A stretch of 64,000 nt of DNA from an uncultured Desulfobacter sp. (GCA_963665095.1 OY762069.1:5600001-5664000), one strand, 5' to 3'. Shown: positions 33,325 through 56,371, counted from the first letter of the stretch. The notes: generated by a model from the sequence alone, not told the origin. Made by a program: numbers and translations.

Positions 33325-33341
33325 CCGGACTATTACTAATA
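33325..33341 (+). repeat. candidate att site, left copy of a 17-bp direct repeat (CCGGACTATTACTAATA)
   Basis: 16 of 17 identical to 56355-56371. Confidence 0.55.
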
Positions 33342-34044
33342 TTGCTCGCCGGTTTGATGATTTTAAAAGTTTGGAAGTACAGGGAAAATTCGGGGTGTCG
33401 CCCGACTATAAAAAGGAGTCTGACTGAAGGGGAGTCCTCACCTCAGCTTTTTTGATTGACCTGCCAGATTTTTGATCCAGATCATCCAGGGCACCAATAA
33501 CAAAGAACAATAGGCCTTGCGAGAGCTAAGGCGGAGATCGGCCTTCCGAAACATGGCTTACAACATGACTCGATATAAAATATTGGTCCGTAATGGAGTC
33601 TGACGGGATAATGGACGGCCAAGGTCGTTCAATCCCTCTGACGAACTTTTTGTGGGAGATGTTCGCAGCCAGACTAGGCATTGCGTGGAAATAAATAGCG
33701 CAATATTGCGCCGAATTTTGCTCCATATACGAGGTGTGCTAAATGTTGAATAGCCGGTCTATTCGGCCTTTAGCACAAAGAAGTAGATGGGGCAAAAGGC
33801 AAGCAAGATGTGCTATTTATTTTTGTGTAATGCCTTAGGGCATGGAAATGAATTTTATTCGTGGATTCCATAATTTTTCAAAAATTTAATTCAGCACCGG
33901 ATTATTCGAGGTGCCCTTAAATCATTATCCGCCGCCTGGGTACTTCATACAGCAATCAGAACCAATACAGTGGCTCAGACTTTGACAATATTTAAATAAT
34001 TTCCTATTAGATGTATTGCAGTCTAAACATGTTAGGATTCATAT

Positions 34045-35544
34045 ATGCAAAATTTTTTAGACATTTTCACTAATATTCTCAGTTCAGTGCGTGAGCCGCT
34101 CGTGGTTCTTGATGCCGATTTGAAAATTGTCAGAGCAAATCATGCGTTCTACATGGCCTTTTGTACCAAGCAGGAAGAGACAGAGGGCGTTTTAATTTAT
34201 GATCTTGGCAACGGGCAGTGGAATATCCCCGGACTCAGAGAATTGCTTGAGAAGATCCTCCCTGAAAATACCGTGTTCAATGATTTTGAAGTGGAGCATT
34301 CCTTTGATGGCATCGGGCCTAAAATCATGCATCTGAATGCCAGAAGAATCTATAACGATTTTAAAAAATTGGAGTTGATTCTGCTGGCCATTGAGGATGT
34401 GACCGAAAAAGAGCATTACAAGCGCAATCTTGAGGATATTGTAAAAAAAAGGACCCAACAACTTGTTCTTGAAAAAAAGAAAACAGAACAGGAAAAACAA
34501 ATTGCCGAGAGATCCTTAAAAGAAATTGAAGTACTGAAAAAGCAACTTGAAGATGAACGGGCGTATCTTAAAGACGAGATCAAGCTGGAACATAATCACG
34601 AGAGCATTATCGGTCAGAGTGACGGGCTTAAATATGTGCTCTTCAAAGTTGAGCAGATTGCAGACAGCAACACAACAGTTATGGTTCTCGGTGAGACAGG
34701 CACAGGTAAAGAGCTTGTGGCCCGGGCAATTCACAGCAACAGCAGCCGGAAAAACCGGGCACTGGTCAAGGTCAATTGTGCGGCATTGCCCTCAAATCTT
34801 ATAGAGAGCGAGCTTTTCGGTCATGAAAGAGGCGCGTTTACCGGTGCCGACCGCAGCCACAAAGGACGATTTGAGATTGCTGACAAAGCCACCCTGTTTC
34901 TGGACGAAATCGGAGAGATGCCTCTGGAATTGCAATCAAAGCTGCTCAGGGTCATTCAGGACGGTGAATTCGAACGGCTGGGCAGTTCTCGCACCACCAA
35001 GGTGGATGTCCGGATCATTGCCGCGACAAACCGGAATCTTGAGCAGGAAATTGAAAAAGGGCGTTTCAGGGAAGATCTGTGGTACCGGCTCAATGTTTTT
35101 CCCATTACCATGCCGCCGCTGCGGGAAAGAAATGAGGATATCCCCCTTCTGGCTGATTTTTATATAAAAAAAATCTCCCGGAGACTGGGAAAGCAGATCA
35201 AGGTGGTTCCTCAAAACGTGATGAATGCCCTTCTAAATTACCACTGGCCGGGAAACGTTAGGGAACTGGAAAATGTTCTTGAACGGGCAGTGATCAATTC
35301 ATCAAGCGCCAAACTTCATCTGGCGGATGATCTGGAAAAATCCTACAGGCATTTGACCAAAGACTTTAAAACCCTGGAGGCGGTTGAACGCGATTATATC
35401 ATCCGCGTGCTCGAACAGACCCGCTGGAAAGTCAGCGGTAAGAACAGTGCGGCCCAGATCCTGGGTTTAAACCGCAGTACATTGCGTGCCCGCATGCGCA
35501 AACTCTCCATCGTTCCCCCTGAACGCCTTCCCTTTGATTCTTAA
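34045..35544 (+). CDS. PAS-domain sigma54-dependent transcriptional activator
   Basis: N-terminal PAS and coiled coil, [29 protein letters not shown], Fis-type HTH. Confidence 0.96.
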
Positions 35545-35615
35545 TGGGCGTATTTTTGTTGTGGCCGATCCTTTTGCAGCCATGCACCTGATCCCCAAAA
35601 GGGGGACATTAAAAA

Positions 35616-35647
35616 GGTCCCATATGACCCATTGGACAAATACGACC
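35616..35647 (+). promoter_or_regulatory. tandem upstream activator sequence 1 (GGTCCCATATGACC-N4-GGACAAATACGACC)
   Basis: Shared with 44808-44839; 135 bp upstream of a consensus sigma54 promoter. Confidence 0.7.
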
Positions 35648-35673
35648 GCTTTTGAGACCCTCCGGCGTCCTTA

Positions 35674-35687
35674 CCCCCCCCCCCCCC
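35674..35687 (+). repeat. C14 homopolymer between the UAS and the sigma54 promoter
   Basis: Direct reading of the sequence. Confidence 0.85.
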
Positions 35688-35750
35688 TTCTTTGGGTGTT
35701 TCCCCTTAAAATTCAGCATCATCAAAGAATAAATTCCCCGACCCGTCCCC

Positions 35751-35765
35751 TGGCACAATGATTGC
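35751..35765 (+). promoter_or_regulatory. sigma54 (-24/-12) promoter
   Basis: TGGCAC-AATGA-TTGC fits the TGGCAC-N5-TTGC consensus; lies directly downstream of an activator gene. Confidence 0.88.
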
Positions 35766-35864: not shown

Positions 35865-35963
35865 ATGGGCGACAAAGGAAAACGAGACAAAGGCAAGCGT
35901 GAAGAACAGAAAAAAGCCAAGTTGACACCAAAGGAGAAACGCAGACAAAAAAAACTAAAGTAA
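35865..35963 (+). CDS. 32-aa very basic small protein MGDKGKRDKGKREEQKKAKLTPKEKRRQKKLK
   Basis: GAGG RBS; first ORF after the sigma54 promoter; below the ORF-track cut-off. Confidence 0.65.
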   Translation: MGDKGKRDKGKREEQKKAKLTPKEKRRQKKLK

Positions 35964-36049: not shown

Positions 36050-36379
36050 ATGATGATTGTCACAATGACCTTCAACGTACATCCGGAAAAACATCTGGAA
36101 GTGCTGCAAACCCTTCTCTCCCTGATGGAACCGTTGAGAAAGGAACCCGGCTGCAGAAGCTGCACCGCCTTTTGTGACATTGAGGAGGAGAACCGGTTCA
36201 TACTGCTTGAAGAATGGGAAACCCGTAACGAGATGAACCATCACATCCGATCCCAGCAGTTCGATGTCCTTCTGGGTACAAAAACACTCTTATCAGAACC
36301 GCCCCGGATTCGAATTCATACCGTGTCCCGAACCGGGGGGATGGATGCCGTCCGGGCGCTCCGGCTGAAAAAAGGCTGA
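36050..36379 (+). CDS. antibiotic biosynthesis monooxygenase (ABM) family protein
   Basis: RKEPGC, FILLEEWET, HIRSQQF. Confidence 0.85.
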   Translation: MMIVTMTFNVHPEKHLEVLQTLLSLMEPLRKEPGCRSCTAFCDIEEENRFILLEEWETRNEMNHHIRSQQFDVLLGTKTLLSEPPRIRIHTVSRTGGMDAVRALRLKKG

Positions 36380-36399: not shown

Positions 36400-37878
36400 A
36401 TGAATATACTTCTGATTTATCCTAAATTTCCGGACACCTTCTGGTCGTTTAATCATGCGGTGGGTTTCATCGGTAAAAAAGCCGCGTTCCCCCCTTTGGG
36501 CCTTTTGACAGTGGCTGCGCTGCTGCCTCAAAACTGGTCCAAAAGACTTGTGGATACCAATGTGGAGCGCTTGAGCGACAACGACCTTTCATGGGCAGAC
36601 ATGGTCTTTATGGGCGGCATGACGGTTCAGCGCGAATCCGCCTGCCGGATTATTGACCGGTGCAACGCCTTGGCGGTGACCATAGTCTGCGGGGGGCCTC
36701 TTTTTACGGCTGAACCGGAGCAATTCGGGGCTGCGGATCACCTGGTGCTGGATGAAGCCGAGCTGACACTGCCCCTTTTTTTATCAGACCTGGAAAAGGG
36801 GCAGGCAAAAAAGATCTATCGGGCAAAAGGGTTCAGTGACCTTGGAAAGACACCGGTTCCCCTGTGGCATCTGCTGAAGGTAAAACAATATGCCGCCTTG
36901 AGCATCCAGTTCTCCAGGGGCTGTCCCTTTAACTGCGATTTCTGCAATGTCACCGCATTGTTCGGACACCGGCCCCGGCTGAAATCACCCGAACAGATCA
37001 TTGGGGAACTGGACCGTATCTATGATCTTGGCTGGCGCAGCAGCGTCTTTTTTGTGGATGATAATTTTATCGGCAACACCCGGTTCCTGAAGGACCACCT
37101 GCTTCCGGCCCTGATCCAATGGCGCCGGGATAAAAAAGGATGCGTCTTTTTTACAGAATCCTCCATCAACCTTGCCGATGATCCGGAACTGCTCTCTTTG
37201 ATGGTTAAAGCCGGATTTGACTCCGTGTTCATCGGTATCGAGTCTCCGGATGAAACCGCCTTGAGCGAATGCCATAAAGTCCAGAATAAAAACAGGGATC
37301 TGCTTGAAAGTGTGGCCATCATCCACAAAAGCGGCCTGCAGGTGATGGGCGGGTTTATCGTGGGATTTGACAGTGACCCGCCATCCATTTTTCAACGCCA
37401 GATCGATTTTATCCAGCACAGCGGGATCGTCATGGCCATGGTGGGGATGCTTCAGGCACCCCCGGGAACCCGCCTGTTTGACAGGCTTCAGCGCTGCAAA
37501 AGGGTGGTCAGGCCCTTTACCGGCGATAATGTGGACGGCACCACCAATATCCTGCCCCGGATGGGGATAGAGGCGCTGTCAAAGGGGTACCAACGGATCA
37601 TGAAACAGATCTATTCCCCGGCAAACTATTACCGGCGGGTCAGGACCCAGTTGCGGGCCCTCACGCCCCCCGAGGTGTCCGCCCCCCTGGACTTCCAGCG
37701 GTTTCTCTCCTTTTTCAGAGCCGGTATCAGGCTGGGTATCCTGGGAAAAGAGCGGTTCTGCTATTGGCAGCTGATCCTGTGGACCCTTGTTCGAAAACCC
37801 CGGCTGATCTCTTTGGCCGTAACCTTATCCATATACGGGTATCATTACCGGAAAATCTGTGAACGTTATATCTATTAA
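36400..37878 (+). CDS. B12-binding radical SAM protein (DUF4070 C-terminus)
   Basis: PPLGLLTVAA, SRGCPFNCDFC, FVDDNF, FIGIES, GFIVGFD. Confidence 0.92.
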   Translation: MNILLIYPKFPDTFWSFNHAVGFIGKKAAFPPLGLLTVAALLPQNWSKRLVDTNVERLSDNDLSWADMVFMGGMTVQRESACRIIDRCNALAVTIVCGGPLFTAEPEQFGAADHLVLDEAELTLPLFLSDLEKGQAKKIYRAKGFSDLGKTPVPLWHLLKVKQYAALSIQFSRGCPFNCDFCNVTALFGHRPRLKSPEQIIGELDRIYDLGWRSSVFFVDDNFIGNTRFLKDHLLPALIQWRRDKKGCVFFTESSINLADDPELLSLMVKAGFDSVFIGIESPDETALSECHKVQNKNRDLLESVAIIHKSGLQVMGGFIVGFDSDPPSIFQRQIDFIQHSGIVMAMVGMLQAPPGTRLFDRLQRCKRVVRPFTGDNVDGTTNILPRMGIEALSKGYQRIMKQIYSPANYYRRVRTQLRALTPPEVSAPLDFQRFLSFFRAGIRLGILGKERFCYWQLILWTLVRKPRLISLAVTLSIYGYHYRKICERYIY

Positions 37879-37924: not shown

Positions 37925-39037
37925 GTGGCCGACACCTCAACACATCAATTTAAAGATTATCTAAACCGGTTCAAGAAACGATTATCCGGCTCTTCGTCGG
38001 ATATGAGACTGAATATAAGGCTGGGTAGAGGATTTCAAACCCTGCTGATACTGGCCGCGATTTTATACTTTAGTTATGCCTATTTATTCGTTTATGTGGA
38101 ACCAAATGAATACGGCATCAAGGTGATCCGGGTGGGGATGACCCGCGGCGTTCAAAAAGAGGTGTACCATGCCGGGCTCACCTTTGTTCTGCCCTTTGGT
38201 CTGCAGAAGATGTACCGCCTTCCCAAGGGCATCCAGGTTCTGGAGCTGACCAATTTTCCGGAAACAGCGGCCAACGGTGCCAGAAAAGACCGGGCCGCCC
38301 ATATCCAGACCTCGGATGGTTTTTTTGTGGATGTGGATGTCTCCATGCTCTACCACATCAAGGACCCTTACCTGGTATTTACCACCATCGGTCCGGGCAA
38401 GCTGTACGAAGACAACGGCATTATCCCCAAGGCCGAGCCGGCCCTGAAAGAGACCCTGGGCAAACTGACCACCGAAGAGTTTTACAACAGCCCCATGCGG
38501 GTCAAAAAGGCGGAGGAGGCCAAAGCCAATCTCAACCGGGAACTCAACGCCAAGGGCATTGAGGTGGATCAGGTGCTGGTCCGGTATTTTCGATACAGTC
38601 CTGAAATCCAGAAAAACATTGAAGCCAAAAAACTTCAGGATCAGATGGTCTTTACCAACCAGGCCGCGGCCCGGGCAGCCAGGGAAGAGGCCCAGTTGAA
38701 GAAGATTGTCCAGGAGGGCATGGTCATCGCTGCGGTTGAGATGGAAAAAGGAAAAGCCTATGTAACCCGTAAAATCGCAGAAAAAGACCTCTATGCCCGT
38801 AAAATAAAAGCCCAGGCCGATCTTCTGGTGAAACTGTCTGAGGCCGAGCGGGTGCGCCTGAAAAATGAGGCATTACAGGGCGTCGGGTCCGACCGTATGG
38901 TAGGACTGAAGATGGCCCGGGCCTATGAGGGCCTTGACCTGATTATCCTGCCCAGCGACGGTGCCCATGGGGTCAACCCGCTGGATCTGAACAACACTTT
39001 GAGCCTGTTTGATGTCCGCCAGGGAGGTACCAAATGA
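37925..39037 (+). CDS. SPFH/band 7 domain membrane protein
   Basis: TM segment, then VEPNEYGI...QTSDGFFVDVDVSMLYHI; Ala/Glu-rich coiled coil. Confidence 0.85.
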   Translation: MADTSTHQFKDYLNRFKKRLSGSSSDMRLNIRLGRGFQTLLILAAILYFSYAYLFVYVEPNEYGIKVIRVGMTRGVQKEVYHAGLTFVLPFGLQKMYRLPKGIQVLELTNFPETAANGARKDRAAHIQTSDGFFVDVDVSMLYHIKDPYLVFTTIGPGKLYEDNGIIPKAEPALKETLGKLTTEEFYNSPMRVKKAEEAKANLNRELNAKGIEVDQVLVRYFRYSPEIQKNIEAKKLQDQMVFTNQAAARAAREEAQLKKIVQEGMVIAAVEMEKGKAYVTRKIAEKDLYARKIKAQADLLVKLSEAERVRLKNEALQGVGSDRMVGLKMARAYEGLDLIILPSDGAHGVNPLDLNNTLSLFDVRQGGTK

Positions 39038-40071
39038 AACGGTTTATCCTAGTTGTAATCCTGATGACAGCAGTGGTTTGGTCCACAGGTTGTATGCCCC
39101 ATACCACAGGGGAAACCCAAGTCGGTGTCCGCACCCGGAAAATCAGCCTCTTTGGTCCCAAAGGGGTGGAAGACCATGTCTATGCCCAGGGCTCAACCTA
39201 TTTTTTCATGCCCTTTATCAATGACTGGCATGTCTTTGATACCAAACTGCAGAATCTGGAAATGACCTTTTCAAAAGCCCGGGGAGACCGCAGATCCCAG
39301 GATGACCTGCTGTTTAAAACCACTGACGGCAATGACATCAGCCTGGATGTGATCATTGCCTACAGGATTGACGCCTCAAAAGCCCCTTACATTCTCCAGT
39401 ATGTGGCCCCGAACGATGCCATCCTGAGGGAAACCATCGTCAGGACCGTGGCCAGAAGCAAGCCCAGGGATATCTTCGGAGAGTTGAAAACCGAAGCTTT
39501 TTATGTGGCCGAAGCAAGAGAGACCCAGTCTGCAAAGGCCAAGGCCGCCTTGGATAAGATCCTTGGCCCCATGGGCATTGTCATTGAAAAGGTGCTGACC
39601 AACGACTACCGGTTCAATGCGGAGTACACCAAGGCCATTGAAGATAAAAAAGTGGCAGACCAGCAGGTGGAAAAGAATAAATCTGCCCAGCACGCCGCCC
39701 TTGAAGAGTACAAACGAAAACTTGAAGAGGCCCGGGGGGAAGTCAACAAGATGGTGGCCAATGCCGACGGCCAGTATCAAAAGGATAAAATCGAGGCCGA
39801 TGTCTACCTGGAACAGCAGCAGCTTCTGGCCAGGGCCATCGAGGCAGAAGGCATTGCCGAAGCCAAGGGCATCCGGGAGATGAACAATGCACTGGCCGGT
39901 TCGGGCGGTGAGACCATCGTGAAACTGGAAATTGCACAGGCCCTTGAAGGCAAGCGCATTATTCTGCTTCCGGTGTCCGAGGGGGGAATGAACCTTAAAA
40001 CAACGGATATCAACCGGCTCATCGAGACCCTGGGGGTGAAATCGCTTTCCCCGCGCCAGAGCCCGGATTAA
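39034..40071 (+). CDS. SPFH/band 7 domain lipoprotein
   Basis: Lipobox-like STGC, TTDGNDISLDVIIAYRID, AIEDK, coiled coil; ATGA overlap with the preceding gene. Confidence 0.85.
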   Translation: MKRFILVVILMTAVVWSTGCMPHTTGETQVGVRTRKISLFGPKGVEDHVYAQGSTYFFMPFINDWHVFDTKLQNLEMTFSKARGDRRSQDDLLFKTTDGNDISLDVIIAYRIDASKAPYILQYVAPNDAILRETIVRTVARSKPRDIFGELKTEAFYVAEARETQSAKAKAALDKILGPMGIVIEKVLTNDYRFNAEYTKAIEDKKVADQQVEKNKSAQHAALEEYKRKLEEARGEVNKMVANADGQYQKDKIEADVYLEQQQLLARAIEAEGIAEAKGIREMNNALAGSGGETIVKLEIAQALEGKRIILLPVSEGGMNLKTTDINRLIETLGVKSLSPRQSPD

Positions 40072-40116: not shown

Positions 40117-41145
40117 ATGAAAGATGACATTACCTGGAAGATTATTCGTCTGTGTATGACCATTAATCAAAGGGCCATACAGATATATACCAAGCTTTCC
40201 AGGGCTGAAGAGATCAGGGAGCTGAAAGACTTCTGGATCCTTATGGCGGATGAAGAAAAAAGCCATGCCGTTTTCTGGAACAAGGTCGAGCAGGAGGCTG
40301 AAGATTTCATCTTTCCTTCTGTTTTTGATACGCCGCCGGATACCCAGAAAGCGTTATCCGACATCCTGGAAAAAATTGAGGTTCTCTCAGACCGCTGGGA
40401 AGAGAACAAATCAATGGAAAACGCACTGATTCTGGCCTATCGGCTGGAATACCACATGCTGGATCCGACCTTTGAACTGCTGTTTAACGCCTTAAAACCC
40501 TTTACTGCAGATATGGACCCATCAGGTACATATGACCGCCATATGCGCCGATTCATTGATATGTTCATTCAATACGGCCACATAACACCCGAGCTCGAAC
40601 TCTTGGGAGAAACCCTGCAAAGCCTTTGGCAGAGAAATAAGGTTCTGGTTGATATGGCCATGACCGACGGGTTGACCGGTCTGTTTAACCGGCGGGGGTT
40701 TCTGATTGTTGCCCAGGAATTGTTTTCCCTGTCCCAGCGAAGAAAGGAGAATATTGCGATCTTCATGATTGATATTGATCACTTTAAAAAAATTAACGAC
40801 CGGTATGGGCATCCAAAAGGGGACGCCGTGCTGAAGGGCGTGGCAAAATCCCTGAAGCGGGTTGTCCGGGAATCAGATGTGCTGTGCCGGTACGGCGGGG
40901 AGGAATTTGTCATCCTGTTTCCCGACATCCGGCCCTCTGCTGTGCCGCAGATGGCTGAAAAAATCAGGAAAGGAGTGGAAAAATCAAGACCGGAAAGTAT
41001 TTTTGTAACCGTCAGTATCGGGGTGAAGCAGGGTCTGGTTAAAAAGACTTCCGATAGGGCGTTTTTTTCCTGGATCTCAAAGGCCGATAACTGCTTGTAC
41101 AAGGCCAAATCCAGCGGCAGAAACTGCGTTGTGCATGATTACTGA
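40117..41145 (+). CDS. diguanylate cyclase with N-terminal ferritin/rubrerythrin-like domain
   Basis: MADEEKSH helix; DGLTGLFNRR, DIDHFKKIND, RESD I-site, GGEEF. Confidence 0.9.
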   Translation: MKDDITWKIIRLCMTINQRAIQIYTKLSRAEEIRELKDFWILMADEEKSHAVFWNKVEQEAEDFIFPSVFDTPPDTQKALSDILEKIEVLSDRWEENKSMENALILAYRLEYHMLDPTFELLFNALKPFTADMDPSGTYDRHMRRFIDMFIQYGHITPELELLGETLQSLWQRNKVLVDMAMTDGLTGLFNRRGFLIVAQELFSLSQRRKENIAIFMIDIDHFKKINDRYGHPKGDAVLKGVAKSLKRVVRESDVLCRYGGEEFVILFPDIRPSAVPQMAEKIRKGVEKSRPESIFVTVSIGVKQGLVKKTSDRAFFSWISKADNCLYKAKSSGRNCVVHDY

Positions 41146-43108: not shown

Positions 43109-43483
43109 ATGATGAAAAAACCCAAGAAAAAAATACACCGGCTGACCAATGACAGCTTGACCAATGACAGCAAAGACGACTGGATCGAATTCGGCAAAGA
43201 AGAAGGGGAAAACTGGATTAAAAATATGTCAAATGATGACGCCTGCAGGGTGGCAATCAATGCATCGGATTTTGACGATGCCGAAGAAACCCTGAACCGG
43301 CAGGACGACTACCAGTATGACTATTTCAAGAATGATTTCAGATACAGATTTGAAGAACTCTGGTCAGCAGTAAATAAAACCTGCGTCCCTGATTGGGATG
43401 TTGAAGAATATCGGTTTTTCAAACAGGGATGGATCCATGCGGTCAGGGAATTTGGCCGGGATATCATGAATGACAATCAATAA
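43109..43483 (+). CDS. acidic hypothetical protein
   Basis: GGAGG RBS, 124 aa, internal LTNDS duplication. Confidence 0.6.
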   Translation: MMKKPKKKIHRLTNDSLTNDSKDDWIEFGKEEGENWIKNMSNDDACRVAINASDFDDAEETLNRQDDYQYDYFKNDFRYRFEELWSAVNKTCVPDWDVEEYRFFKQGWIHAVREFGRDIMNDNQ

Positions 43484-43504: not shown

Positions 43505-43910
43505 GTGGGACAATATCATCTGGAAAGCATGTTCGACCCCCGTCGAATCGCAGTGGTGGGGGCCAGTGAAAAAAAAGGATCTATCGGGCGCGCACTGATG
43601 GAAAACCTTAGGAAAGGCGGGTTCACCGGCACGATACTGCCTGTGAATCCCAGGTATGGCACCCTTTACGGATATGAGTGTGTGAAATCGGTATGCGATT
43701 TGGATCCCGGGGTGGACCTTGCCATTATCGCCACCCCCATTCACACCGGGGCCATGGCGGGGGAAGACGCTGTGTATGATGCGGCCTTCAAGCGCGCTGG
43801 CGGAAAACCGGAATATGATCATGATGGGTAAAAAGATGGGGTTTGAGGTTAAAAGAGATCCTGACACCCATGACATCAATCTCATCATTCATCTGGGAAA
43901 TAAGAAATAA
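43505..43910 (+). pseudogene. collapsed remnant of an acyl-CoA-synthetase/GNAT (Pat-like) gene
   Basis: IAVVGAS...DLAIIATP joined to HTGAMAGEDAVYDAAFKRAG, joined to a GNAT-like tail LAENRNMI...KKMGF. Confidence 0.78.
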
Positions 43911-44137: not shown

Positions 44138-44199
44138 TGTCAACGGTTCAGGTCTTTTCAACACATCCATATTTATGGACAAATTTAAGGAAATTTAAA

Positions 44200-44839: not shown

Positions 44840-44938
44840 TTTTTTCTTCCCCTTACAAAGACGTGGCATAGCATATTTCAATCTTAATTTTCCATATGAA
44901 TCAATAGGTTAAAAAGTCTACGCCCAGATATCCTGTCC

Positions 44939-45955: not shown

Positions 45956-46114
45956 ATGCTGTGGATCATCGTTGCAATACTGACAATTCTGTGGCTGGTG
46001 GGATTTATGAACAGCTGCACAATGGGAGGGTTTCTCCATATTCTTCTGGTGCCGGCTGTCATCATACTGGTCTTTGATCTGCTGCAGAGCAGAAAGATTG
46101 GTTCGAAAAATTAA
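45956..46114 (+). CDS. lmo0937-like small membrane protein (52 aa)
   Basis: [25 protein letters not shown]...[10 protein letters not shown]; below the ORF-track cut-off. Confidence 0.8.
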
Positions 46115-47758: not shown

Positions 47759-50056
47759 ATGGTAGCGAATGGACAATCCTTTGAGGGGATCGATTCTGTT
47801 GCCGTCATCGGTAACTATCTGCCCAGGCAATGCGGCATTGCAACCTTTACACGGGATCTGGTTGAGGGCCTGTCCGACAGGGCAAAGAATACCCATTGCT
47901 GGGCGGTTGCCATGAACGACTGTATAGAGGGGTATGCATATCCTGAAAAAGTACGCTTTGAAATCAATCAGAACAAATTGGCCGATTATGGCATTGCCGC
48001 CCAGTTCTTGAATATCAGCCACACCGATATTGTCTGCCTTCAGCATGAATTCGGTATCTTCGGGGGCCCGGCCGGCAGCCATGTTCTCAAGCTTCTTTCA
48101 GATTTGCATATGCCGGTGGTGACAACACTGCATACCGTGTTGAAAGATCCCTCCCCCGAATACCGCAGCGTGATGGTCAAGCTGGGAGAGTTGTCAGATA
48201 AACTGGTGGTCATGAGCCGAAAGGCGGAACATTTTCTCCATGAGGTCTATGGGATTCCCAGGGAAAAAGTCGCCTTTATCCATCACGGTATTCCGGACAT
48301 GCCCTTTATCGACTCCAGTTTTCACAAAGACAAATTTGACGTGGAAGGCAAAAAGGTGTTGCTCACCTTTGGCCTGCTCTCGCCCAACAAGGGAATCGAA
48401 ACCGTGCTCCAGGCACTTCCGGCTGTCATCGAAAAATATCCGGAAGTGGTGTATATCATCCTGGGCACCACCCACCCCCATGTCCTGAAAACCAACGGGG
48501 ATGCCTATCGGATCATGCTCCAGCAGATGGTTCACACGCTGAATATCAGCGACCATGTCATTTTTCAGAATAATTTTGTCGCCTTGAGAGAGCTGTGTGA
48601 ATTCCTGGGCATTGCAGATATTTACATCACTCCCTATCTTGAAGAGGCCCAGATCACCTCCGGAACCCTTGCCTATGCCATGGGAACCGGCAAAGCCGTG
48701 ATTTCAACCCCTTACTGGTATGCGCAGGAAATGCTGGCAGAGGGCCGGGGGCACCTTGTCCCCTTCAACAGCCCCAATGCCCTGGCAGAACAGATTAACG
48801 CGCTTTTAGGCGATGATAACCAGCGGCATGCCATCCGGAAAAAAGCATACACATTCACAAGGGATGCGGTATGGTCAAAAGTCTGTCAAAATTATCTCGA
48901 CCTCTTCAGCGAGGTGCGGCACAACCGGATCCGGCATCCCAGACCCAGGCATTCCTATGTGTCACACATCAAAGCCATTACCCGCTTTGACCTGCCCGAG
49001 ATCAAGCTGGACCACTTGAAAGCCATGACCGATGACACCGGCATGCTCCAGCATGCCAATTATACCATTCCAGACAGACGTCATGGATACTGCACGGATG
49101 ACAATGCCAGAGCGCTGCTGGCCGCAGCCATGGGCCAGAAACATCTGCCGACCAACGGCCTTGGCCTGGATGCCTTGAGCGGCCATTACTTAGGGTTCCT
49201 CTTATACGCCTACAATAAAAAAAACGGACGGTTCCGCAACTTCATGACCTATGAAAGGCAATGGGCTGAGGAGATCGGATCCGAGGATTCCCATGGCCGG
49301 GCCCTCTGGTGTCTGGGTAAGGCCGTGGCTTTTCTGGATAATCCAGGCCATCTGGCCATGAGCACGGTTCTGTTTAAAAAGGCATTGATTGCGGCCGAAA
49401 GTTTCAGGTCCCCAAGGGCTGTTGCATTCTGCCTGGTGGGTCTGGATGCCTACCTGGACAAATTCTTCGGTGACAGTGATGCAAGAAGAATCAGGGATGT
49501 TCTGGCCCAAAGAGTATTCAGTCAGTTTTGTGAAAACAAGACCGGGGACTGGCCCTGGGTCGAGGATACCTTGAACTATGGCAATGCCAGACTCTCCCAT
49601 GCCCTTCTGGTTTCAGGTCATAGAATGAAAGATAAGGAAATGGTGACGATGGGCCTGGACAGTCTTTTATGGCTGCTCTCCATCCAGACGTCGGATCATC
49701 ATTTTGCCCCGGTGGGCTGCAACGGCTGGTATGGCAAAAAAGGGAAGCGGGCGGCCAGGTTTGACCAGCAGCCCATCGAAGCCCAAACCATGGTTGAGGC
49801 ATGTGCGGCAGCCTTCCGCATTACCCGGGACCGGCAATGGTTTGACCGTGCGGTCATCTGTTTTAACTGGTTTCTGGGGCACAATGATCTGAACATGCCC
49901 TTGTATGACCCCAAGACCGGAGGATGCCGGGACGGCCTGATGGTGGACGGTATCAACCAGAACCAGGGAGCGGAATCAACCCTTGCCTGGCTTTTGTCCC
50001 TGATGACGCTGCAGAAACTCTATGCGGATGAACTGTTGAATCAGTCTTCCCCCTGA
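47759..50056 (+). CDS. GT4 glycosyltransferase fused to a probable (alpha/alpha)-toroid domain
   Basis: PRQCGIATFT, QHEFGIFGG, KGIE, SGTLAYA; C-terminal GYCTDDNARAL, FDQQP, NQGAEST. Confidence 0.88.
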   Translation: MVANGQSFEGIDSVAVIGNYLPRQCGIATFTRDLVEGLSDRAKNTHCWAVAMNDCIEGYAYPEKVRFEINQNKLADYGIAAQFLNISHTDIVCLQHEFGIFGGPAGSHVLKLLSDLHMPVVTTLHTVLKDPSPEYRSVMVKLGELSDKLVVMSRKAEHFLHEVYGIPREKVAFIHHGIPDMPFIDSSFHKDKFDVEGKKVLLTFGLLSPNKGIETVLQALPAVIEKYPEVVYIILGTTHPHVLKTNGDAYRIMLQQMVHTLNISDHVIFQNNFVALRELCEFLGIADIYITPYLEEAQITSGTLAYAMGTGKAVISTPYWYAQEMLAEGRGHLVPFNSPNALAEQINALLGDDNQRHAIRKKAYTFTRDAVWSKVCQNYLDLFSEVRHNRIRHPRPRHSYVSHIKAITRFDLPEIKLDHLKAMTDDTGMLQHANYTIPDRRHGYCTDDNARALLAAAMGQKHLPTNGLGLDALSGHYLGFLLYAYNKKNGRFRNFMTYERQWAEEIGSEDSHGRALWCLGKAVAFLDNPGHLAMSTVLFKKALIAAESFRSPRAVAFCLVGLDAYLDKFFGDSDARRIRDVLAQRVFSQFCENKTGDWPWVEDTLNYGNARLSHALLVSGHRMKDKEMVTMGLDSLLWLLSIQTSDHHFAPVGCNGWYGKKGKRAARFDQQPIEAQTMVEACAAAFRITRDRQWFDRAVICFNWFLGHNDLNMPLYDPKTGGCRDGLMVDGINQNQGAESTLAWLLSLMTLQKLYADELLNQSSP

Positions 50057-50130
50057 TCAATAGAACTTGATTAATAGAACTTGGTCAATAGAACCTGATC
50101 AATAAAAGTTGGTCAATAAAAGTTGGTCAA
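50054..50130 (+). repeat. 14-bp tandem repeat TGRTYAATARAASY x 5.5 beginning at the upstream stop codon
   Basis: tgatcaatagaact / tgattaatagaact / tggtcaatagaacc / tgatcaataaaagt / tggtcaataaaagt / tggtcaa. Confidence 0.9.
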
Positions 50131-50155
50131 GGGACTCACTATAAAGGAAAATTTT

Positions 50156-51508
50156 ATGCGCATTGCCATGCTCTCCCCCATTGCCTGGCGCACCCCGCCG
50201 CGGCACTACGGCCCCTGGGAAAAAGTGGCCTCCCTCTTAACCGAGGCCCTGGTGGGCCTGGGCCATGACGTCACGCTGTTTGCCACGGCAGATTCCATTA
50301 CGCGCAGCACCCTTCATGCGGTCTGTTCCCAGGGATATGAAGAGGATTCAGACATCATTCCCAAAGTAGGCGAATGCCTTCACATTTCTGAATTGTTTGA
50401 CCATGCCCAAGAGTTTGATATCATTCACAATAACTTTGATTTTCTTCCCTTAACCTATGCAGGCCTTACCCAGACCCCTATGGTGACCACCATCCACGGT
50501 TTTTCATCGCCTGGAATTTTACCGGTGTACCGCAAATACAATAAAAAAACCTTTTACGTTTCCATCAGCGATGCTGACCGGGCTAAGGGCCTTGACTATA
50601 TTGACACCATTCACCACGGCATCGATATAAAGGAGTTTCATTTTCAGGCCCACCCGGAGGAGTATCTGGTCTTTTTCGGCCGCATCCATCCGGATAAAGG
50701 CGCCAAAGAGGCCATTGACATCGCCCGGGCATGCGGCAGAAGGCTGATCATGGCAGGCATTATTCAGGACAGCACCTATTTTAGGGAAGATATCCAGCCC
50801 TTCATTGACGATGCCTCTGTGGTTTATCTCGGCAGTGTTGGACCCGATAAGAGAAATGACCTTTTGGGCAAGGCCTATGCCCTGCTTCATCCCATCAATT
50901 TCAACGAACCATTCGGTCTTTCCGTTATCGAAGCCATGGCCTGCGGCACGCCGGTCATTGCAAACAACCGGGGCAGTATGCCCGAACTGATCCGGGACAA
51001 TAAAAACGGATTTCTTGTTTCCGGAACAGATGAGGCTGTCTCTGCGGTGGACCGCATCAGGGATATTGACCGTGAATTCTGCCGCAGAACTGTTCTGGAT
51101 CACTTTACCATCGACGGCATGGTTAAAAAATATATCCGGGTGTATGAGCGGATTCTGGAGAGGACCCGGCGTGAAGACCACCGCCCCTGGGGCTTTTATA
51201 CCATACTGTCCGATGAGGATGCCGTGAAGAACAAAAAGATCGTGGTTTATCCGGGAAAACGCTTAAGCCTTCAGCGCCACCAGTACCGCGATGAGCACTG
51301 GTATATCGTCAGCGGTAAAGGGCTTTGGACCCTTGACGGCAAAACCGTCCCGGTGACTGCCGGGCAATCCGTGGATATCCCCAGAAAAACCATCCACAGA
51401 ATGGAAAACAGGGGCCGGGACAATCTGGTTTTTATGGAAATTCAGACCGGCGACTATTTTGGCGAAGATGATATTGAACGTCTGGCCGATGATTTCGGAA
51501 GGATCTGA
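50156..51508 (+). CDS. GT4 glycosyltransferase fused to a mannose-6-phosphate-isomerase-type cupin
   Basis: PPRHYG, GRIHPDKG, EPFGLSVIEAMACGTPV; RPWG, LSLQRHQYRDEHW, EIQTGDYFGEDDIER. Confidence 0.9.
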   Translation: MRIAMLSPIAWRTPPRHYGPWEKVASLLTEALVGLGHDVTLFATADSITRSTLHAVCSQGYEEDSDIIPKVGECLHISELFDHAQEFDIIHNNFDFLPLTYAGLTQTPMVTTIHGFSSPGILPVYRKYNKKTFYVSISDADRAKGLDYIDTIHHGIDIKEFHFQAHPEEYLVFFGRIHPDKGAKEAIDIARACGRRLIMAGIIQDSTYFREDIQPFIDDASVVYLGSVGPDKRNDLLGKAYALLHPINFNEPFGLSVIEAMACGTPVIANNRGSMPELIRDNKNGFLVSGTDEAVSAVDRIRDIDREFCRRTVLDHFTIDGMVKKYIRVYERILERTRREDHRPWGFYTILSDEDAVKNKKIVVYPGKRLSLQRHQYRDEHWYIVSGKGLWTLDGKTVPVTAGQSVDIPRKTIHRMENRGRDNLVFMEIQTGDYFGEDDIERLADDFGRI

Positions 51509-51518
51509 AAGGACTCAA

Positions 51519-52460
51519 ATGGATAAAATCCAGGATATTGTGACGCGTTACCCCAAAAACCCGATACTGACCCGGGAGGATGTGCCCTATCCCGTTGTAA
51601 CGGTGCACAATGCCGGGGTGGTCAGATACAAAGACCGCTATATCATGCTGTTCCGGTCCCATTTGAAAAACGGACGGTCTGTCATCGGAAGGGCGGACAG
51701 CCCGGATGGCTTTACTTTCACAGTCAGCCCGGAACCCTTTTTAACGCCGGCATCCAGTGGACGTTTTGCCGAATACGAAGCCTTCGGGGTCGAGGATTTG
51801 CGCATCAACCCGGTTGAGGGCTCATACCTTCTCACCTACAGTGCCTATTCCCGCCACGGGGTTCGTATTGCCCTGGCCCGGACCTGTGATTTTGAAAAAA
51901 TCGAACGGATTGCCCTGATCACCCAGGCTGATCTGCGCAATGTGGTGATCTTTCCTGAAAAAATTGATGGCCGGTATGTCCGTCTGGACCGTCCCCACTC
52001 GGAAATTTCTCCCTGGTCCATCTGGATTTCCTATTCCCCGGACCTGATTTACTGGGGGGACTCACAGGTTGTCATCAAGCCCTTACCCTACCACTGGGAT
52101 GAAATGAAAATCGGCCCCGGCTCACCGCCCATTAAGACGGATGAGGGCTGGCTTCATATCTACCACGGTGTTTTTAAAACCATGTCCGGAACCGTATACC
52201 GGCTTGGGGCGGCGCTGCATGATTTATCAGACCCTTCCAGGGTTATCGGGGTGTCTGATCAATGGATCCTGCAGCCCGAAGAGGTCTGGGAACAGACCGG
52301 CTATGTCCCCAATGTGGTGTTTAGCTGCGGTGCTGTACCTGAAGATGACGGAATGCTGAAAATTTACTGGGGGGGAGCAGATACGGTGATGTGCGCGGGT
52401 ACGGCAAAGATTTGTGATCTTGTCTCCCTGTGCCGTCTGTCGAATCGTCCGCCCATGTAA
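51519..52460 (+). CDS. GH130 family beta-mannoside phosphorylase/hydrolase
   Basis: NPIL, HNAG, GVEDLRI, FPEKI, KIGPG, GWLHIYHG, VPNVVF. Confidence 0.9.
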   Translation: MDKIQDIVTRYPKNPILTREDVPYPVVTVHNAGVVRYKDRYIMLFRSHLKNGRSVIGRADSPDGFTFTVSPEPFLTPASSGRFAEYEAFGVEDLRINPVEGSYLLTYSAYSRHGVRIALARTCDFEKIERIALITQADLRNVVIFPEKIDGRYVRLDRPHSEISPWSIWISYSPDLIYWGDSQVVIKPLPYHWDEMKIGPGSPPIKTDEGWLHIYHGVFKTMSGTVYRLGAALHDLSDPSRVIGVSDQWILQPEEVWEQTGYVPNVVFSCGAVPEDDGMLKIYWGGADTVMCAGTAKICDLVSLCRLSNRPPM

Positions 52461-52487
52461 CCCTGAACTGAATTAGGAAAGACATTG

Positions 52488-53963
52488 ATGCCGAAAAAAA
52501 GCCATGGCAACCTGACGATCACAAGAAAACCCAATAAAATAGTCGGGGATACCTCCCGTGTCATTACAAGGCCCCATCTCCCGGCTGATTCCAGGCGCAT
52601 CGCCTCGATCATCCAGCGAATCCGCGGCCTGACCCAGAAGGAGGGCAACAGATTATTAACACAGATCATGAAAGATTTTTCCAGGCGCCACGACGACCTG
52701 GTCCATATTTTTGAACGGCACTTCAACCTGGTAAAACACCAAATTAAAAAAGAGACCTTGCTCAGTGACACGGAAAGAACATTGATCGGCGCGTATTTTA
52801 CAAAGGAGTATGCCATTGAATCCGCAGCGCTTTTCAATCCATCCATTGTGCCGCATCCAATTCAAAGTCATCTTGAAGAAGGCAGCCTTCGGTTTGTCAT
52901 GAGTTTGAGGGCCACCGGGGAAGGCCACATTTCCTCCATTGTTTTCAGAAGCGGTGTGCTGAACCGGTACAACACCTTCCGGTTTGACCCGGTCAGTGAG
53001 TTTGTGGAGACACCGGAACTGAAGTTGAACCCCTTATACAAGCGAAAGCTCTTTGAGTACAAGCTCAGGGAAATGAATGCAGATTCCGATATCTGCACCC
53101 ATGTCCTCAATGCGCTTCCCGAAGAATTCAGCAAGGAAGAACTGGGCAGGGAAATGACCAGGCTTCATAAACACCCTCAATTTTCAAAAACCGGACAGAA
53201 CAGGACCTTTGAGATTATCAACTGGCTTTCGGACTCCAATTATGAGGTGGATTTCCATTCGAATCACCGCATCTCCGAGCGGGTCATCTTTCCGGTTTCC
53301 AAAAATGAGAGCCGCGGGATAGAAGATGCGCGGTTTGTTCAGTTTTTTGATGAGAACGGGGACTCAACCTACTATGCAACCTATACGGCGTATAACGGGG
53401 TGACCATTTTACCCCAGCTGATCGAAACCAGGGATTTTATCAGTTTTAAAATTACAATGCTGAACGGAAAAGCAGCACAGGATAAAGGCCTGGCCCTGTT
53501 CCCCCGGAAGATTAAGGGCCAGTTTGCCATGCTGTCCCGGCAGGATGGTGAGAGCAACCATATTATGTTTTCAAAACACCTGCACTTCTGGAGAACCTCT
53601 CATATGATCCAGATGCCCGAGTATCCCTGGGAATTTGTCCAGATCGGCAACTGCGGTTCGCCCATGGAGACTGAGAAAGGCTGGCTCGTTCTGACCCATG
53701 GTGTCGGGCCCATGCGGCAATACTGCATCGGTGCCATGCTCCTTGATCTTGAAAACCCGCGCAAGGTCATCGCACGGCTTGAACAACCGCTTTTGGCTCC
53801 CACTGAAAAAGAGCGGGAGGGGTATGTTCCAAACGTCGTCTACTCCTGCGGTTCAATCATCCATCGCAATGAGCTGGTCATTCCCTATGCCATGTCCGAT
53901 ATTAATTCGGGCATCGCAACGGTTTCTGTGAGTCATCTGATCAATGCGATGCGCAGTGTATAG
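52488..53963 (+). CDS. long GH130-family protein
   Basis: AALFNPS, GEGHISS, GIEDARF, DKGLALFP, IGNCG, GYVPNVVYSCG. Confidence 0.88.
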   Translation: MPKKSHGNLTITRKPNKIVGDTSRVITRPHLPADSRRIASIIQRIRGLTQKEGNRLLTQIMKDFSRRHDDLVHIFERHFNLVKHQIKKETLLSDTERTLIGAYFTKEYAIESAALFNPSIVPHPIQSHLEEGSLRFVMSLRATGEGHISSIVFRSGVLNRYNTFRFDPVSEFVETPELKLNPLYKRKLFEYKLREMNADSDICTHVLNALPEEFSKEELGREMTRLHKHPQFSKTGQNRTFEIINWLSDSNYEVDFHSNHRISERVIFPVSKNESRGIEDARFVQFFDENGDSTYYATYTAYNGVTILPQLIETRDFISFKITMLNGKAAQDKGLALFPRKIKGQFAMLSRQDGESNHIMFSKHLHFWRTSHMIQMPEYPWEFVQIGNCGSPMETEKGWLVLTHGVGPMRQYCIGAMLLDLENPRKVIARLEQPLLAPTEKEREGYVPNVVYSCGSIIHRNELVIPYAMSDINSGIATVSVSHLINAMRSV

Positions 53964-54021
53964 GGCCATGCGCAGGGTATAGGGCGATGCGCAGGGTATA
54001 GGGCCATGCGCAGGGTAACGG
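53946..54021 (+). repeat. 19-bp tandem repeat x 4 whose first unit is the gene's 3' end
   Basis: gcgatgcgcagtgtatagg / gccatgcgcagggtatagg / gcgatgcgcagggtatagg / gccatgcgcagggtaacgg. Confidence 0.9.
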
Positions 54022-54106
54022 CCGGAAGTTTTAACGCGTATGGGACCGCTGAAAAAAACAGCAGACAAAAAGGCCATAATGATAAGCCCCAAAAAGGATT
54101 TAACTA

Positions 54107-55246
54107 TTGAGAAAAAAACAAAGGGACGCTTTACTGATCTCTTTTTTCAAGGAAAAAGAGAATTACAAAAAACTTGCCGAGTATGTTGTCCGGCTGCTAA
54201 AAGACGATCCTTCCGCCCCAAAGGAGAGCATACATACCATTCTGTACAGGATCAAAGACGCATCAAGGCTCATAGAAAAAATCGACCAGGAAAATACCGG
54301 CTCGGAATCTGATATGGCACCGATCACACATAAAAATTTCAAGGATAGGATAGGGGATATCATTGGCATCCGGATTATCTGTCTGCGCCTTTCAGACATT
54401 GTGAACGTCGAGGCGTATCTTGAATATTTAGTGGAAGAAAAAATATTAACGTTCATACAACAACCCGATTATAAAAGAACATTTGTTCTGCCGATAGATC
54501 CTGGCAAGGCCGTTCCAAAGGATGTCAGTCTCCAATACAGCGGCTACTCTTCAATTCACTACCAGATCAAGATAGGTGAGAATTCAGATGCAGGCCAAGC
54601 GTTTAAAAGCATTCAGATTGAACTGCAATTGAGGACCATTCTTGAGGAGGCATGGGGGGAGATTGACCATAAATACAGATACAGCTACAGTCGAATCGGG
54701 AACATACTTCCAAACTATATACACTCAGGGTTCTATAATTTGAGCGCCTATCTGCAGGCCGCCGCCATGCAGGCTGAGCAATTGTGCCGGGACGTTGAGG
54801 CGTATAGCTTGAAAAGGACCCTAAAGTTGAAAGGAAATAAAAAGACTCCGATTCCACCAGAATCGGAGGAAAAAGAAACGATGAATGACCTTGCTGACCC
54901 ATTGACGGTGCCCCCGGCCCTTAAATCGGTATTGGAAGAGACATTCGGGTTTAAAACAACAACGAGAACCCTTGCGTATATCATGAGACGGCTTAATAAA
55001 TTAGGCTTCTCCCAGCGCTCTAAAAGCTTTTTTCAGAAAATATTCAAAAAGCGCAGACTGAATGAATTCCGATCTGTTTACCAGGAAGTTCTAAACCAAG
55101 ATCCATTTAAGGACAGTGCGAATAGAAATATTGATCTCATAAATGCCGTGAATTTTGCGCTTTTCGACGAAATCGAAGGCGCAATGGTCGCAAAGGAAGG
55201 ATTGAGATCCACTCTAAAATGGAGAAAAGATCGTTTGTCTATTTAA
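54107..55246 (+). CDS. RelA/SpoT synthetase-domain protein (small alarmone synthetase-like)
   Basis: YRIK..RLIEK, DIIGIRII, GYSSIHY, IELQLRT..EAWGEIDH. Confidence 0.88.
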   Translation: MRKKQRDALLISFFKEKENYKKLAEYVVRLLKDDPSAPKESIHTILYRIKDASRLIEKIDQENTGSESDMAPITHKNFKDRIGDIIGIRIICLRLSDIVNVEAYLEYLVEEKILTFIQQPDYKRTFVLPIDPGKAVPKDVSLQYSGYSSIHYQIKIGENSDAGQAFKSIQIELQLRTILEEAWGEIDHKYRYSYSRIGNILPNYIHSGFYNLSAYLQAAAMQAEQLCRDVEAYSLKRTLKLKGNKKTPIPPESEEKETMNDLADPLTVPPALKSVLEETFGFKTTTRTLAYIMRRLNKLGFSQRSKSFFQKIFKKRRLNEFRSVYQEVLNQDPFKDSANRNIDLINAVNFALFDEIEGAMVAKEGLRSTLKWRKDRLSI

Positions 55247-55255
55247 AGGAGTATC

Positions 55256-55697
55256 ATGCGGCTAAATGCATCCTGTGGAATTGAATTTCAGATATCGGTT
55301 CCAACCCCTTTTTTTGCTGATGCTTCGCCCCCGCAGCGGACGGCAGCAGTGGATCACACGCGAAGAATATCTTTTATCACCCAGCGTGCCGGCGGCAGAG
55401 TTTACGGATTCCTTCGGCAATCTATGTCAAAGACTGGTCGCACCGGCCGGTGATTTTTCAGTTCGTACCTCTGTTGATATCGAGACTGCGGAAAATTCCG
55501 ACAGGGCTCCCGGCGCACCGTTCATCGACGTGCAGAAGTTGCCGGATGCCACCCTGCCGTTCCTGTATCTCAGCCGCTATTGTGAATCGGATCGCTTCAC
55601 GGAAATGGTGGCATTGGTTACCAAGGACCGCTGTCCAGGATACGATCAATGCGAGGCCATTGTCGGCTATATCAGGGATTCGATAGGCTATACCCCT
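55256..55697 (+). pseudogene. transglutaminase-like protein, frameshifted (T7 at 55309-55315) and 3'-truncated
   Basis: [24 protein letters not shown]; ends against the integrase remnant before the catalytic Cys. Confidence 0.78.
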
Positions 55698-56157
55698 TCC
55701 CAGCATTTTGAACGATTTCACGTGCTCTGGTATATCCAAATAGAAACACGTTGTGGTCATCTCCTATCTTGCCGGTGGTGATATATTCCCGTAAACGGTC
55801 CGCTACTTTTTTAGGGATAAAAACAATCTCGGTCTGATTTCCGCTTTTCGGATCAGTTAAAACCAACCTTCTGCCGTGCACATTCTTGGCTTTTAATTTC
55901 AGAACCTCTCCAACTCTCATCCCACCTCTTGCCATCCGCTCGAGCATCCATCAATCGGTTTCTGGAATTATTTGCCTTAAAGATAATTTCGTCCACAACA
56001 TCCCTGTCAAGAATTGTCCACGACCTCCCCTTGGCTGTTTTAAATGTTTTCCTCAATTTTAAATCGTGTCAGAAAAAAACCATAATTTCTTATGGTATTT
56101 TTTTGAATTCATTTTTTGGTGATTCAGAAAAGTGTCGATGGCATTTGATGTTTTCAT
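55692..56157 (-). pseudogene. tyrosine integrase remnant (frameshifts, C-terminus lost)
   Basis: AAGGAG RBS, MKTSNAIDTFL..., VVDEIIF, MARGGMRVGEVLKL, PKSG. Confidence 0.8.
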
Positions 56158-56354
56158 GATGCTCTCCTTTGATAAAAATTGAGGTTCACCTGGAAAGAGG
56201 CCCCAGTCAGATATTTTAAAACATGAAAATTTTTTTTCAACTGACAGACCATGGTCAGGGGAAAAGATATCGGTTCTGAATAACACCAGCATCTTTAATA
56301 TTTCACTGAGGACTTTGTTACAAGCAACATACCCACAATGCTGATTTTAAAACC

Positions 56355-56371
56355 CCGGACTATTATTAATA
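56355..56371 (+). repeat. candidate att site, right copy (CCGGACTATTATTAATA)
   Basis: 16 of 17 identical to 33325-33341; about 200 bp upstream of the integrase start. Confidence 0.55.

Follow-up and report, generated by a model that had tools for sequence, protein, structure and literature searches.

A 64,000-nucleotide stretch of the genome of an uncultured Desulfobacter sp. (GCA_963665095.1, OY762069.1:5600001-5664000), referred to here as the window and numbered from its first letter, contains a 23.0-kb block (33337-56371) in which the gene for a sigma54-dependent activator is followed by two long gene runs, each preceded by the same tandem palindrome. Judging from the comparisons reported below, members of the class Desulfobacteria widely share this regulon, and the block is a mobile example of it. 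That the two runs form a shared regulon with its own activator is very probable. The further proposal, that the block is a mobile element whose activator would bind the motif and induce the two runs in a programme of general stress survival, is the one we favor, with a fair measure of confidence. The source genome (G000) is one contig of 6.9 Mb, 97% complete, and the window corresponds to G000:C1:5600001-5664000; among named homologues, those nearest to its proteins carry the annotation Desulfobacter. A first-pass annotation of this DNA had named the genes in order, co-oriented over about 23 kb, and family searches found all of them present on the plus strand. Most of its gene identities held as well; the transglutaminase gene turned out to be broken, the CoA-binding open reading frame (ORF) at 43505 is a remnant, and the ferritin-like label given to the GGDEF protein is weak.

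A common motif precedes both runs

Each run is preceded by two copies of the palindrome GGTCATATATGACC, which is also the class consensus half-site, set 3-4 bp apart. Genome-wide (6.9 Mb), the exact half-site pattern is found twice, at window positions 35616 and 44808, each about 120 bp 5' of a TGGCAC. When scored with a matrix built from 31 sites in relatives, the window being excluded, the upstream activating sequences of runs 1 and 2 (UAS 1 and UAS 2) reach 46.8 and 43.7 bits; the next score, 14.7, is site 1 reversed. If the gap may be either 3 or 4 bp, only 3 of the 1969 sigma54-like sites in the genome exceed a score of 9, and the next scores 0.4. The motif that the first-pass annotation had seen upstream of both runs is therefore real and nearly confined to them. 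The third site, together with its promoter, lies outside the window at about 1549485 of the genome, on the minus strand, before a gene for a short periplasmic protein. Its surroundings (G000:C1, approximately 1548028-1549620; locus L243) are bounded by two insertion-sequence copies, which we take by eye to be IS66-like, and a NifB/NifX-family gene also lies downstream; this orphan site could be a regulon fragment that moved alone.

Across the class TTGA prevails over TTGC as the -12 box (35 of 51 sites). A site like the consensus for integration host factor (IHF) is found about 40 bp 5' of the promoter in 15 of 51 spacers and anywhere in 18 of them, where shuffling gives 7.7 on average and 16 at most; it is perfect at the run 2 promoter (P2) and absent from that of run 1 (P1).

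The activator has intact Walker A and Walker B motifs, GAFTGA loop and R-finger, all conserved in 19 orthologues. Along with these AAA+ motifs we find a C-terminal helix-turn-helix (HTH), the upstream palindrome and a -24/-12 promoter, the marks of a sigma54 enhancer-binding protein, and rpoN is present in the host. All NCBIfam activator models stayed under their cut-off for this protein, the best being FlhA with 396 of 830 bits. Its predicted structure is weak in the AAA+ part (pLDDT 60), and a fold search returned AAA+ matches only. For the PAS domain, no solved structural relative was found by sequence and no further copy of this PAS type was found in G000; the type is common to many sensor kinases, some of them annotated as CheB/CheR fusions. 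The -35 box of the tentative activator promoter is kept in G009, G020, G024 and G019, and a consensus scan did not call the promoter. In each of G020 and G005, one activator copy is itself preceded by the motif and promoter, an arrangement that points to positive feedback on the activator in these two genomes.

Genes for PAS-LuxR proteins and PAS kinases with an N-terminal "HELQ" coiled coil recur 5' of the activator (loci L021, L019, L029, L011 and L015), and some activator variants (L231, L249, L251) have this coiled coil fused to them; it is possibly a shared signalling input. One activator homologue of 637 aa (P0218) has a precomputed cytochrome c domain (PF00034), which possibly hints at a redox input.

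Activator, motif and target genes recur across Desulfobacteria

Members of the activator family occur in 85 of 301 Desulfobacteria genomes. About 66 match over the full length; the remainder share the AAA+/HTH half (72-78% identical) and carry REC, GAF or other PAS inputs, or a shorter linker. Orthologues are present in 17 of 41 relatives (12 of 24 within the genus, often as two copies), and homologues are annotated as Desulfobacter curvatus, D. hydrogenophilus and Desulfobacula toluolica. In a phylum-wide draw of 400 other genomes, ten match the N-terminal part of the activator at E < 1e-49, six of them outside the order, and no full-length homologue was found among PLSDB plasmids.

From the 85 activator-positive genomes we sampled 40 with long contigs, spread over families, and inspected up to 20 kb around the activator; 75 loci of unrelated generic activators, with 357 sigma54-like sites, served as controls. 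The motif with its promoter was present in 36 of the 40 activator loci (51 sites, spacing mostly 97-101 bp) and in none of the controls. Over all 301 genomes the motif pattern was found in 92, as against 4 hits for the reversed pattern. Activator and motif occurred together in 71 genomes, the activator alone in 14, the motif alone in 21 and neither in 195, so that the motif accompanies 71 of 85 activator-positive and 21 of 216 activator-negative genomes. This class-wide co-occurrence bears out the idea that the block brings its own activator. The allowed gap matters to such counts: it is usually 3 bp outside Desulfobacter, a matrix fixed at 4 bp found the motif in just 9 of the 40 loci, and a strict 4-bp pattern, which matched only the window's genome among 401 genomes of the phylum, is uninformative on range.

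The gene-neighbourhood analysis that the first-pass annotation had proposed gave the following counts. Around the 40 activators the recurring neighbors were ABM (29 loci), radical SAM (16), the long GT4 fusion (13), the GH130 pair (11), Pat (10), FtsH (9), lmo0937 (8), BON (7), and GroEL, the SPFH pair, RelA/SpoT and cardiolipin synthase (cls) with 6 each. In the 75 control loci ABM, radical SAM, GH130, SPFH, lmo0937 and BON were absent, GT4 was seen once or twice and FtsH twice. Relatives add GrpE, GroES, YtxH, HflK/C, DUF1207 and Hsp20 behind or near the motif, and BON and cls are likewise accessory members. Outside the copies in G529 and G009, the set has undergone gene losses, rearrangements and duplications; four copies have rela 5' of the activator. 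Since membership varies in this way from locus to locus, we are dealing with a regulon of variable membership and not with a single pathway.

The modules that the first-pass annotation had described as coupled do recur around the activator in class loci. They are interchangeable, however, and the GT4/GH130 genes also occur without the activator on unrelated plasmids: the quartet is found without the motif on an Ilyobacter plasmid, and a Sphingobium plasmid (NZ_AP018665.1, 5897-15148; L171) carries, as a single run, groES-groEL, GMP/PMI, PMI, this same GT4 fusion, GH130 and phosphomannomutase genes, again without the motif. The pairing of chaperonin and mannoside genes thus recurs in another phylum without this activator. 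Separately, a Geobacter sp. contig (L043) encodes a related activator (55%) and has a related palindrome before sigma54 promoters at 11159 and 20014, with BON, cls and radical SAM genes as neighbors, which suggests a sister regulon outside the class.

The block has moved between genera

Within the block, genes are co-oriented on the plus strand from 34045 to 55781, with intergenic gaps of at most 143 bp apart from 320 bp before run 1, 304 bp before run 2 and 210 bp before the lmo0937 gene. Its GC content (49.8%) is close to that of the genome (48.7%), so composition gives no island signal. Mobility is apparent from comparison with G529, a genome of another genus of the same family, where a copy 97.4% identical lies at a different site between unrelated flanks. 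Four-fold sites differ by 0.02-0.16 between the block genes of G000 and G529 and by 0.48 between their core ftsH genes, which are 81% identical. On these figures the block is a mobile element that was transferred recently between genera, as its first description as mobile had implied.

Homology with the G529 copy spans 33339-56371, which are the cores of two end repeats. As it starts and stops there, the repeats are true transfer boundaries, and the att-like ends of the first-pass annotation are real. The 17-mer at 33326 and 56355 does recur, as part of a family of island-end repeats that has 8 similar cores in G000. We had considered that the ends might be chance copies of an insertion-sequence end, given that the core recurs in the genome and full ends are absent from same-genus copies; the G529 homology stopping at the ends led us to reject this.

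Compared with ten same-genus genomes, core ftsH differs at 0.43-0.50 of four-fold sites. Against G009 the block genes mostly differ at 0.11-0.22 (core ftsH 0.50), with ggdef and cmk at 0.38-0.39, and this greater divergence of two genes indicates that the block copies are mosaic. The full gene set is retained only in G529 and, with insertions, in G009. As most same-genus copies lack full ends, the regulon must predate this vehicle.

The first-pass annotation had also noted an integrase remnant. There are in fact two, one inside the right end and a second, at 32380-33005, outside the left end; no intact integrase was found within the block, and no tRNA lies within the 64-kb window as a target. 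The block is probably mobilised by a recombinase acting in trans. Contigs of one sample span both block ends without differences, which supports the assembly; a circle is not demonstrable by this means. To call the block self-contained, as had been done, goes too far. It needs the host's sigma54 and probably also the host's IHF and GroES; it has no intact integrase and no GroES of its own, and a third target lies outside it.

At 33328 the left arm of the block ("B2") and the right-end arm ("A", 33219-33339) belonging to an upstream element are fused in a common AATATT core, which looks like a recombination product. G000 has 8 left-end and 8 right-end copies of the repeat family, all with the AATATT core. 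In genome coordinates the left ends lie at 315078, 337229, 1827264, 2489107, 2767192, 5879959 and 6090866, with one more at 33328 of the window; the right ends lie at 1851079, 1854648, 2467470, 3101199, 5893064 and 6065056, and at 33328 and 56358 of the window. Left ends are present in 5 of 24 same-genus genomes. Several islands of 13-27 kb in G000 are bracketed by these repeats, and no intact integrase was identified next to the G000 end repeats. Judged by eye, the ORFs of the bracketed islands resemble restriction and other defence genes. Such islands may be an undescribed family of non-autonomous elements. The stretch 17963-33339 is probably a second element in tandem with the block: it is low in GC, has a partial left-end repeat at 17963, encodes a hybrid kinase, two transposases, a LuxR protein, an Ig-like repeat protein, a Ser/Thr kinase and the outer integrase remnant, and is terminated by the right-end arm. 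An element of about 160 bp, palindromic and repeated many times in the genome (33676-33840, MITE- or REP-like), is inserted 5' of the activator. A type I restriction subunit R gene (58613-61408) follows an FGGY kinase gene just beyond the right end of the block.

Gene content of the two runs

Features of the block are collected in Table 1.

Table 1. Features of the block and its control regions (window coordinates)
Feature	Position	Strand	Basis or remark
Left end repeat ("B2" arm)	33337..33439	+	repeat comparison; G529 homology starts 33339
Tentative sigma70-type activator promoter	33982..34010	+	perfect -35, 17 bp, weak -10
Sigma54 activator: PAS, coiled coil, AAA+, Fis-type HTH	34045..35544	+	PF00158 E=1e-73
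UAS 1, two palindromic half-sites, 18-bp period	35616..35647	+	pattern and matrix scan
Sigma54 -24/-12 promoter P1, 103 bp past UAS 1	35751..35765	+	sequence
32-aa basic peptide	35865..35963	+	first gene after P1, conserved in relatives
ABM-domain protein	36050..36379	+	family match; commonest activator neighbor, 29/40 class loci
B12-binding radical SAM with DUF4070, HpnP-like architecture	36400..37878	+	domain matches
Two SPFH/band-7 proteins	37925..39037, 39034..40071	+	family match
Diguanylate cyclase, GGEEF, RxxD I-site, weakly ferritin-like N-terminus	40117..41145	+	domain and motif match
Second FtsH, HExxH intact	41160..43016	+	46.5% to host core FtsH, 53% to tLST FtsH
Acidic 124-aa protein, no family match	43109..43483	+	family search
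Pat-type acetyl-CoA-ligase/GNAT deletion remnant	43505..43907	+	898-aa gene whole in G009
Thivi_2564 family small membrane protein	43946..44137	+	passes NCBIfam cut-off
Periplasmic helical protein	44134..44691	+	weak match to ZraP-like heavy-metal-resistance family, E about 0.004
UAS 2	44808..44839	+	pattern and matrix scan
Consensus IHF site, run 2	44899..44911	+	sequence
Sigma54 promoter P2, 99 bp past UAS 2	44939..44953	+	sequence
Cytidylate-kinase-like protein	44996..45745	+	family match
lmo0937 family/DUF5670 small membrane protein	45956..46114	+	passes NCBIfam cut-off
Second GroEL, 81% to core copy	46166..47758	+	family match, comparison
GT4 glycosyltransferase with helical C-terminal domain	47759..50056	+	family match
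GT4 with mannose-6-phosphate-isomerase-type cupin	50123..51508	+	family match
GH130, phosphorylase-like	51459..52460	+	family match
GH130, divergent, extra N-terminal domain	52485..53963	+	family match
RelA/SpoT synthetase-domain protein, like small alarmone synthetases	54107..55246	+	PF04607 E=3e-14
Broken transglutaminase-like gene	55227..55781	+	covers residues 43-194 of 316-aa homologue; 270-aa ORF in G529
Tyrosine-recombinase remnant inside right end	55770..56157 (approx.)	-	sequence match
Right end repeat ("A" arm and core)	56246..56371	+	repeat comparison; G529 homology ends 56371

In run 1, the ferritin-like character of the GGDEF protein's N-terminus depends on matches to Rubrerythrin (E=0.014) and EncB (E=0.027), and the structure Atlas gave no usable hit for this part. 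A hopanoid role for the radical SAM protein was considered and rejected: a search of the host, a 97%-complete one-contig genome, with the squalene-hopene cyclase model TIGR01507 gave no match. HpnP itself is reportedly EcfG-regulated in Rhodopseudomonas, if the title of a paper cited in PMC4337730 is any guide.

In run 2, no groES was found in the window or, in particular, beside the block groEL. The model of the long GT4 fusion is of low confidence (pLDDT 49), and an Atlas search with its tail returned unnamed clusters and a C5-epimerase lead at 12%. The GH130 proteins score 242 and 147 bits against the beta-1,2-mannoside phosphorylase family, whose cut-off is 550. Aligned with TM1225 and Lin0857, the first conserves the positions assigned to the catalytic acid and the basic phosphate-site residues; in the second, Q occupies a lysine position. 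The RelA/SpoT protein matches YwaC (E=1e-7) and has the synthetase motifs; it falls below the NCBIfam cut-off, and its 180-aa C-terminal part has no family.

A proposed stress-survival regulon and its alternatives

One could envision the following sequence of events. A cytoplasmic signal would act on the PAS domain, in whose place relatives have REC, GAF or other PAS domains on the same output half. Two activator dimers would occupy the tandem palindromes about 100 bp upstream, IHF would bend the DNA and the AAA+ domain would open the host sigma54 promoter, steps predicted from the arrangement and spacing of the motif and from the general biochemistry of sigma54. Two long transcripts would result, one per run. 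The products of run 1 would ensure quality control and turnover of membrane proteins through the SPFH pair and the second FtsH, next to a candidate lipid- or envelope-modifying methylase and c-di-GMP. Those of run 2 would provide a second GroEL working with host GroES, a GDP-mannose-based mannoside that the GT4 and GH130 enzymes make and recycle in the cell for protection or storage, and a brake of the (p)ppGpp type applied by the RelA/SpoT protein. The unit would travel between genera within the end repeats traced above, with a recombinase supplied in trans. We read this as a stress programme because of the gene content and because the host appears to lack RpoS and SigB: three sigma70-family matches were found in it, none over the RpoS or SigB cut-off. 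The first-pass annotation had proposed a general-stress or dormancy regulon, and it is from gene content that this role is inferred here too.

Several observations weigh against this proposal. The usual markers of general stress, such as catalase, Dps, Ku/LigD and CsbD, are missing from the genes recognised in the block. No activator was found in the 21 motif-only genomes, some of which reflect chance matches or genes split at contig ends. With the queries used, good sites but no intact activator were found in G006 (which retains a fragment), G026 and G028; of five more motif-only genomes checked, two carry pieces of the activator at contig ends and three give weaker matches only. Conversely, 14 activator-positive genomes lack a strict-pattern match. 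The genomes compared are related and non-independent, and the G529 locus, one of the 40, hardly differs from the window. Deletions and insertion sequences have disrupted many copies, that of the window having two remnant genes and no groES. Finally, there is no empty-site junction in the 25 genomes checked, and no circular junction of the block was found.

The damage just mentioned is what one would expect if the block were decaying cargo, assembled by insertion sequences and island ends and now silent or leaky, with no regulated benefit. The integrase remnant, the broken or partial copies in G020, G023, G006 and G013, and the absence of the block, including activator and second ftsH, from the complete genomes G008, G011 and G021 fit such a history. 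Yet 18 of the 20 genes past the activator are unbroken, the activator motifs and both promoters are intact, and motif and spacing are conserved in many families, which makes mere decay improbable. A more serious contender accepts the same regulon and would have it switch cells to sessile or stationary life (biofilm, storage), with c-di-GMP, alarmone and mannose glycan in the lead and the chaperones and protease secondary. The GGEEF and RelA/SpoT motifs are indeed intact, and the GT4/GH130 genes are among the commonest targets (13 of 40 loci) and stand with GDP-mannose supply genes on the Sphingobium plasmid. Against this, the island-type GGDEF and RelA/SpoT proteins are minority members (rela in 6 of 40 loci), whereas ABM, radical SAM, FtsH/HflKC, GroEL, BON and lmo0937 recur, and the block has no exopolysaccharide export or polymerase genes; we regard this switch as unlikely. 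Much less likely still is a phage-defence or abortive-dormancy island, in which the activator would sense infection and the alarmone synthetase and membrane proteins would arrest the cell. The same end repeats bracket islands of G000 with defence-like ORFs, named by eye, and a type I restriction subunit is encoded at 58613; the members themselves, however, are mainly chaperones, proteases, sugar enzymes and small membrane proteins, and the RelA/SpoT gene is absent from most loci.

The stress-survival programme remains, then, the reading we prefer. A bolder view is that it represents a fourth kind of general stress response, built on sigma54 and one activator family with a tandem-palindrome operator and swappable sensors, which would fill the role of SigB, RpoS and EcfG and spread, regulator included, as cargo of undescribed non-autonomous elements. 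We put this forward tentatively, our doubts slightly outweighing our belief. In either case the survival of marine and sediment sulfate reducers without RpoS or SigB under oxygen, salt, heat and starvation would acquire one regulator, one operator and a set of promoters to address. The operator permits listing of the regulon in any carrier genome of the class (85 of 301), and it supplies a regulatory context for orphan families: HpnP-like radical SAM proteins in hopanoid-free hosts, the GT4/GH130 quartet, Thivi_2564 and the 32-aa basic peptide.

Relation to known systems

This is apparently an undescribed sigma54 regulon of Desulfobacteria, whose role is most likely stress survival as far as gene content can tell. 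No description of the activator, motif or block was found in the literature covered, RegPrecise, subscription journals and supplements being outside its scope; the promoter tables of PMC12316311 and PMC4641369 could include some of these promoters.

Parts of the block have known counterparts. The Thermoanaerobacter cluster Teth514_1785-1796 for beta-1,2-oligomannan and GDP-mannose likewise has two GH130 genes beside GT4 and mannose activation; according to PMC4264767 it comprises an ABC importer and GH5 and is interpreted as a salvage system. The block, in contrast, has no importer, two GT4 fusions and one divergent GH130, which suggests that its mannoside is made and turned over inside the cell. 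The B12-binding, radical SAM and DUF4070 domains of the run 1 protein are those of the HpnP-like proteins, whose deltaproteobacterial homologues also come from hosts without squalene-hopene cyclase, according to PMC10697835.

In its control the block resembles PspF, ZraR, RtcR and the Desulfovibrio vulgaris set of PMC4641369, with an activator beside its targets, a palindrome, IHF and a -24/-12 promoter. Its target set is far broader; the main text of PMC4641369 mentions neither the motif string nor FtsH, band 7 or glycosyl terms. It is like the SigB, RpoS and EcfG-PhyR responses, as portrayed in PMC7690807 and PMC7083833, in the mixed character of its regulon, in which small membrane proteins, envelope proteins and proteins without known function abound. 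One such protein, lmo0937, is SigB-dependent in Listeria and common to the block and the SigB regulon there (PMC7690807). Unlike these responses, the block is governed by an AAA+ enhancer-binding protein with sigma54, not by a sigma70-family factor, and its regulon is small, clustered and mobile.

A close parallel is the transmissible stress-tolerance locus (tLST), a mobile stress island of 15-19 kb made up of xenologous proteostasis genes. The block FtsH is closer to the tLST FtsH than to that of its own host (Table 1); island FtsH copies group apart from core FtsH, with a long tLST branch of unsure placement. Some relatives of the block also have cls and Hsp20. On the other hand, the dna-hsp20-clpG core has no match in the window (tblastn with E. 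coli tLST proteins, FtsH being the only match), and the annotated tLST copy has no GT4/GH130, SPFH, radical SAM or GroEL. Expression of the tLST is constitutive, from a promoter before orf1, according to a review, whereas the block has a sigma54 activator and its motif. The block is analogous to the tLST in carrying xenologous stress genes on a mobile island; with the core absent and FtsH alone in common, it is not a member. As with the tLST in enterobacteria, a transferable stress kit of this sort would matter for how sulfate reducers persist where corrosion, oil fields and treatment are concerned.

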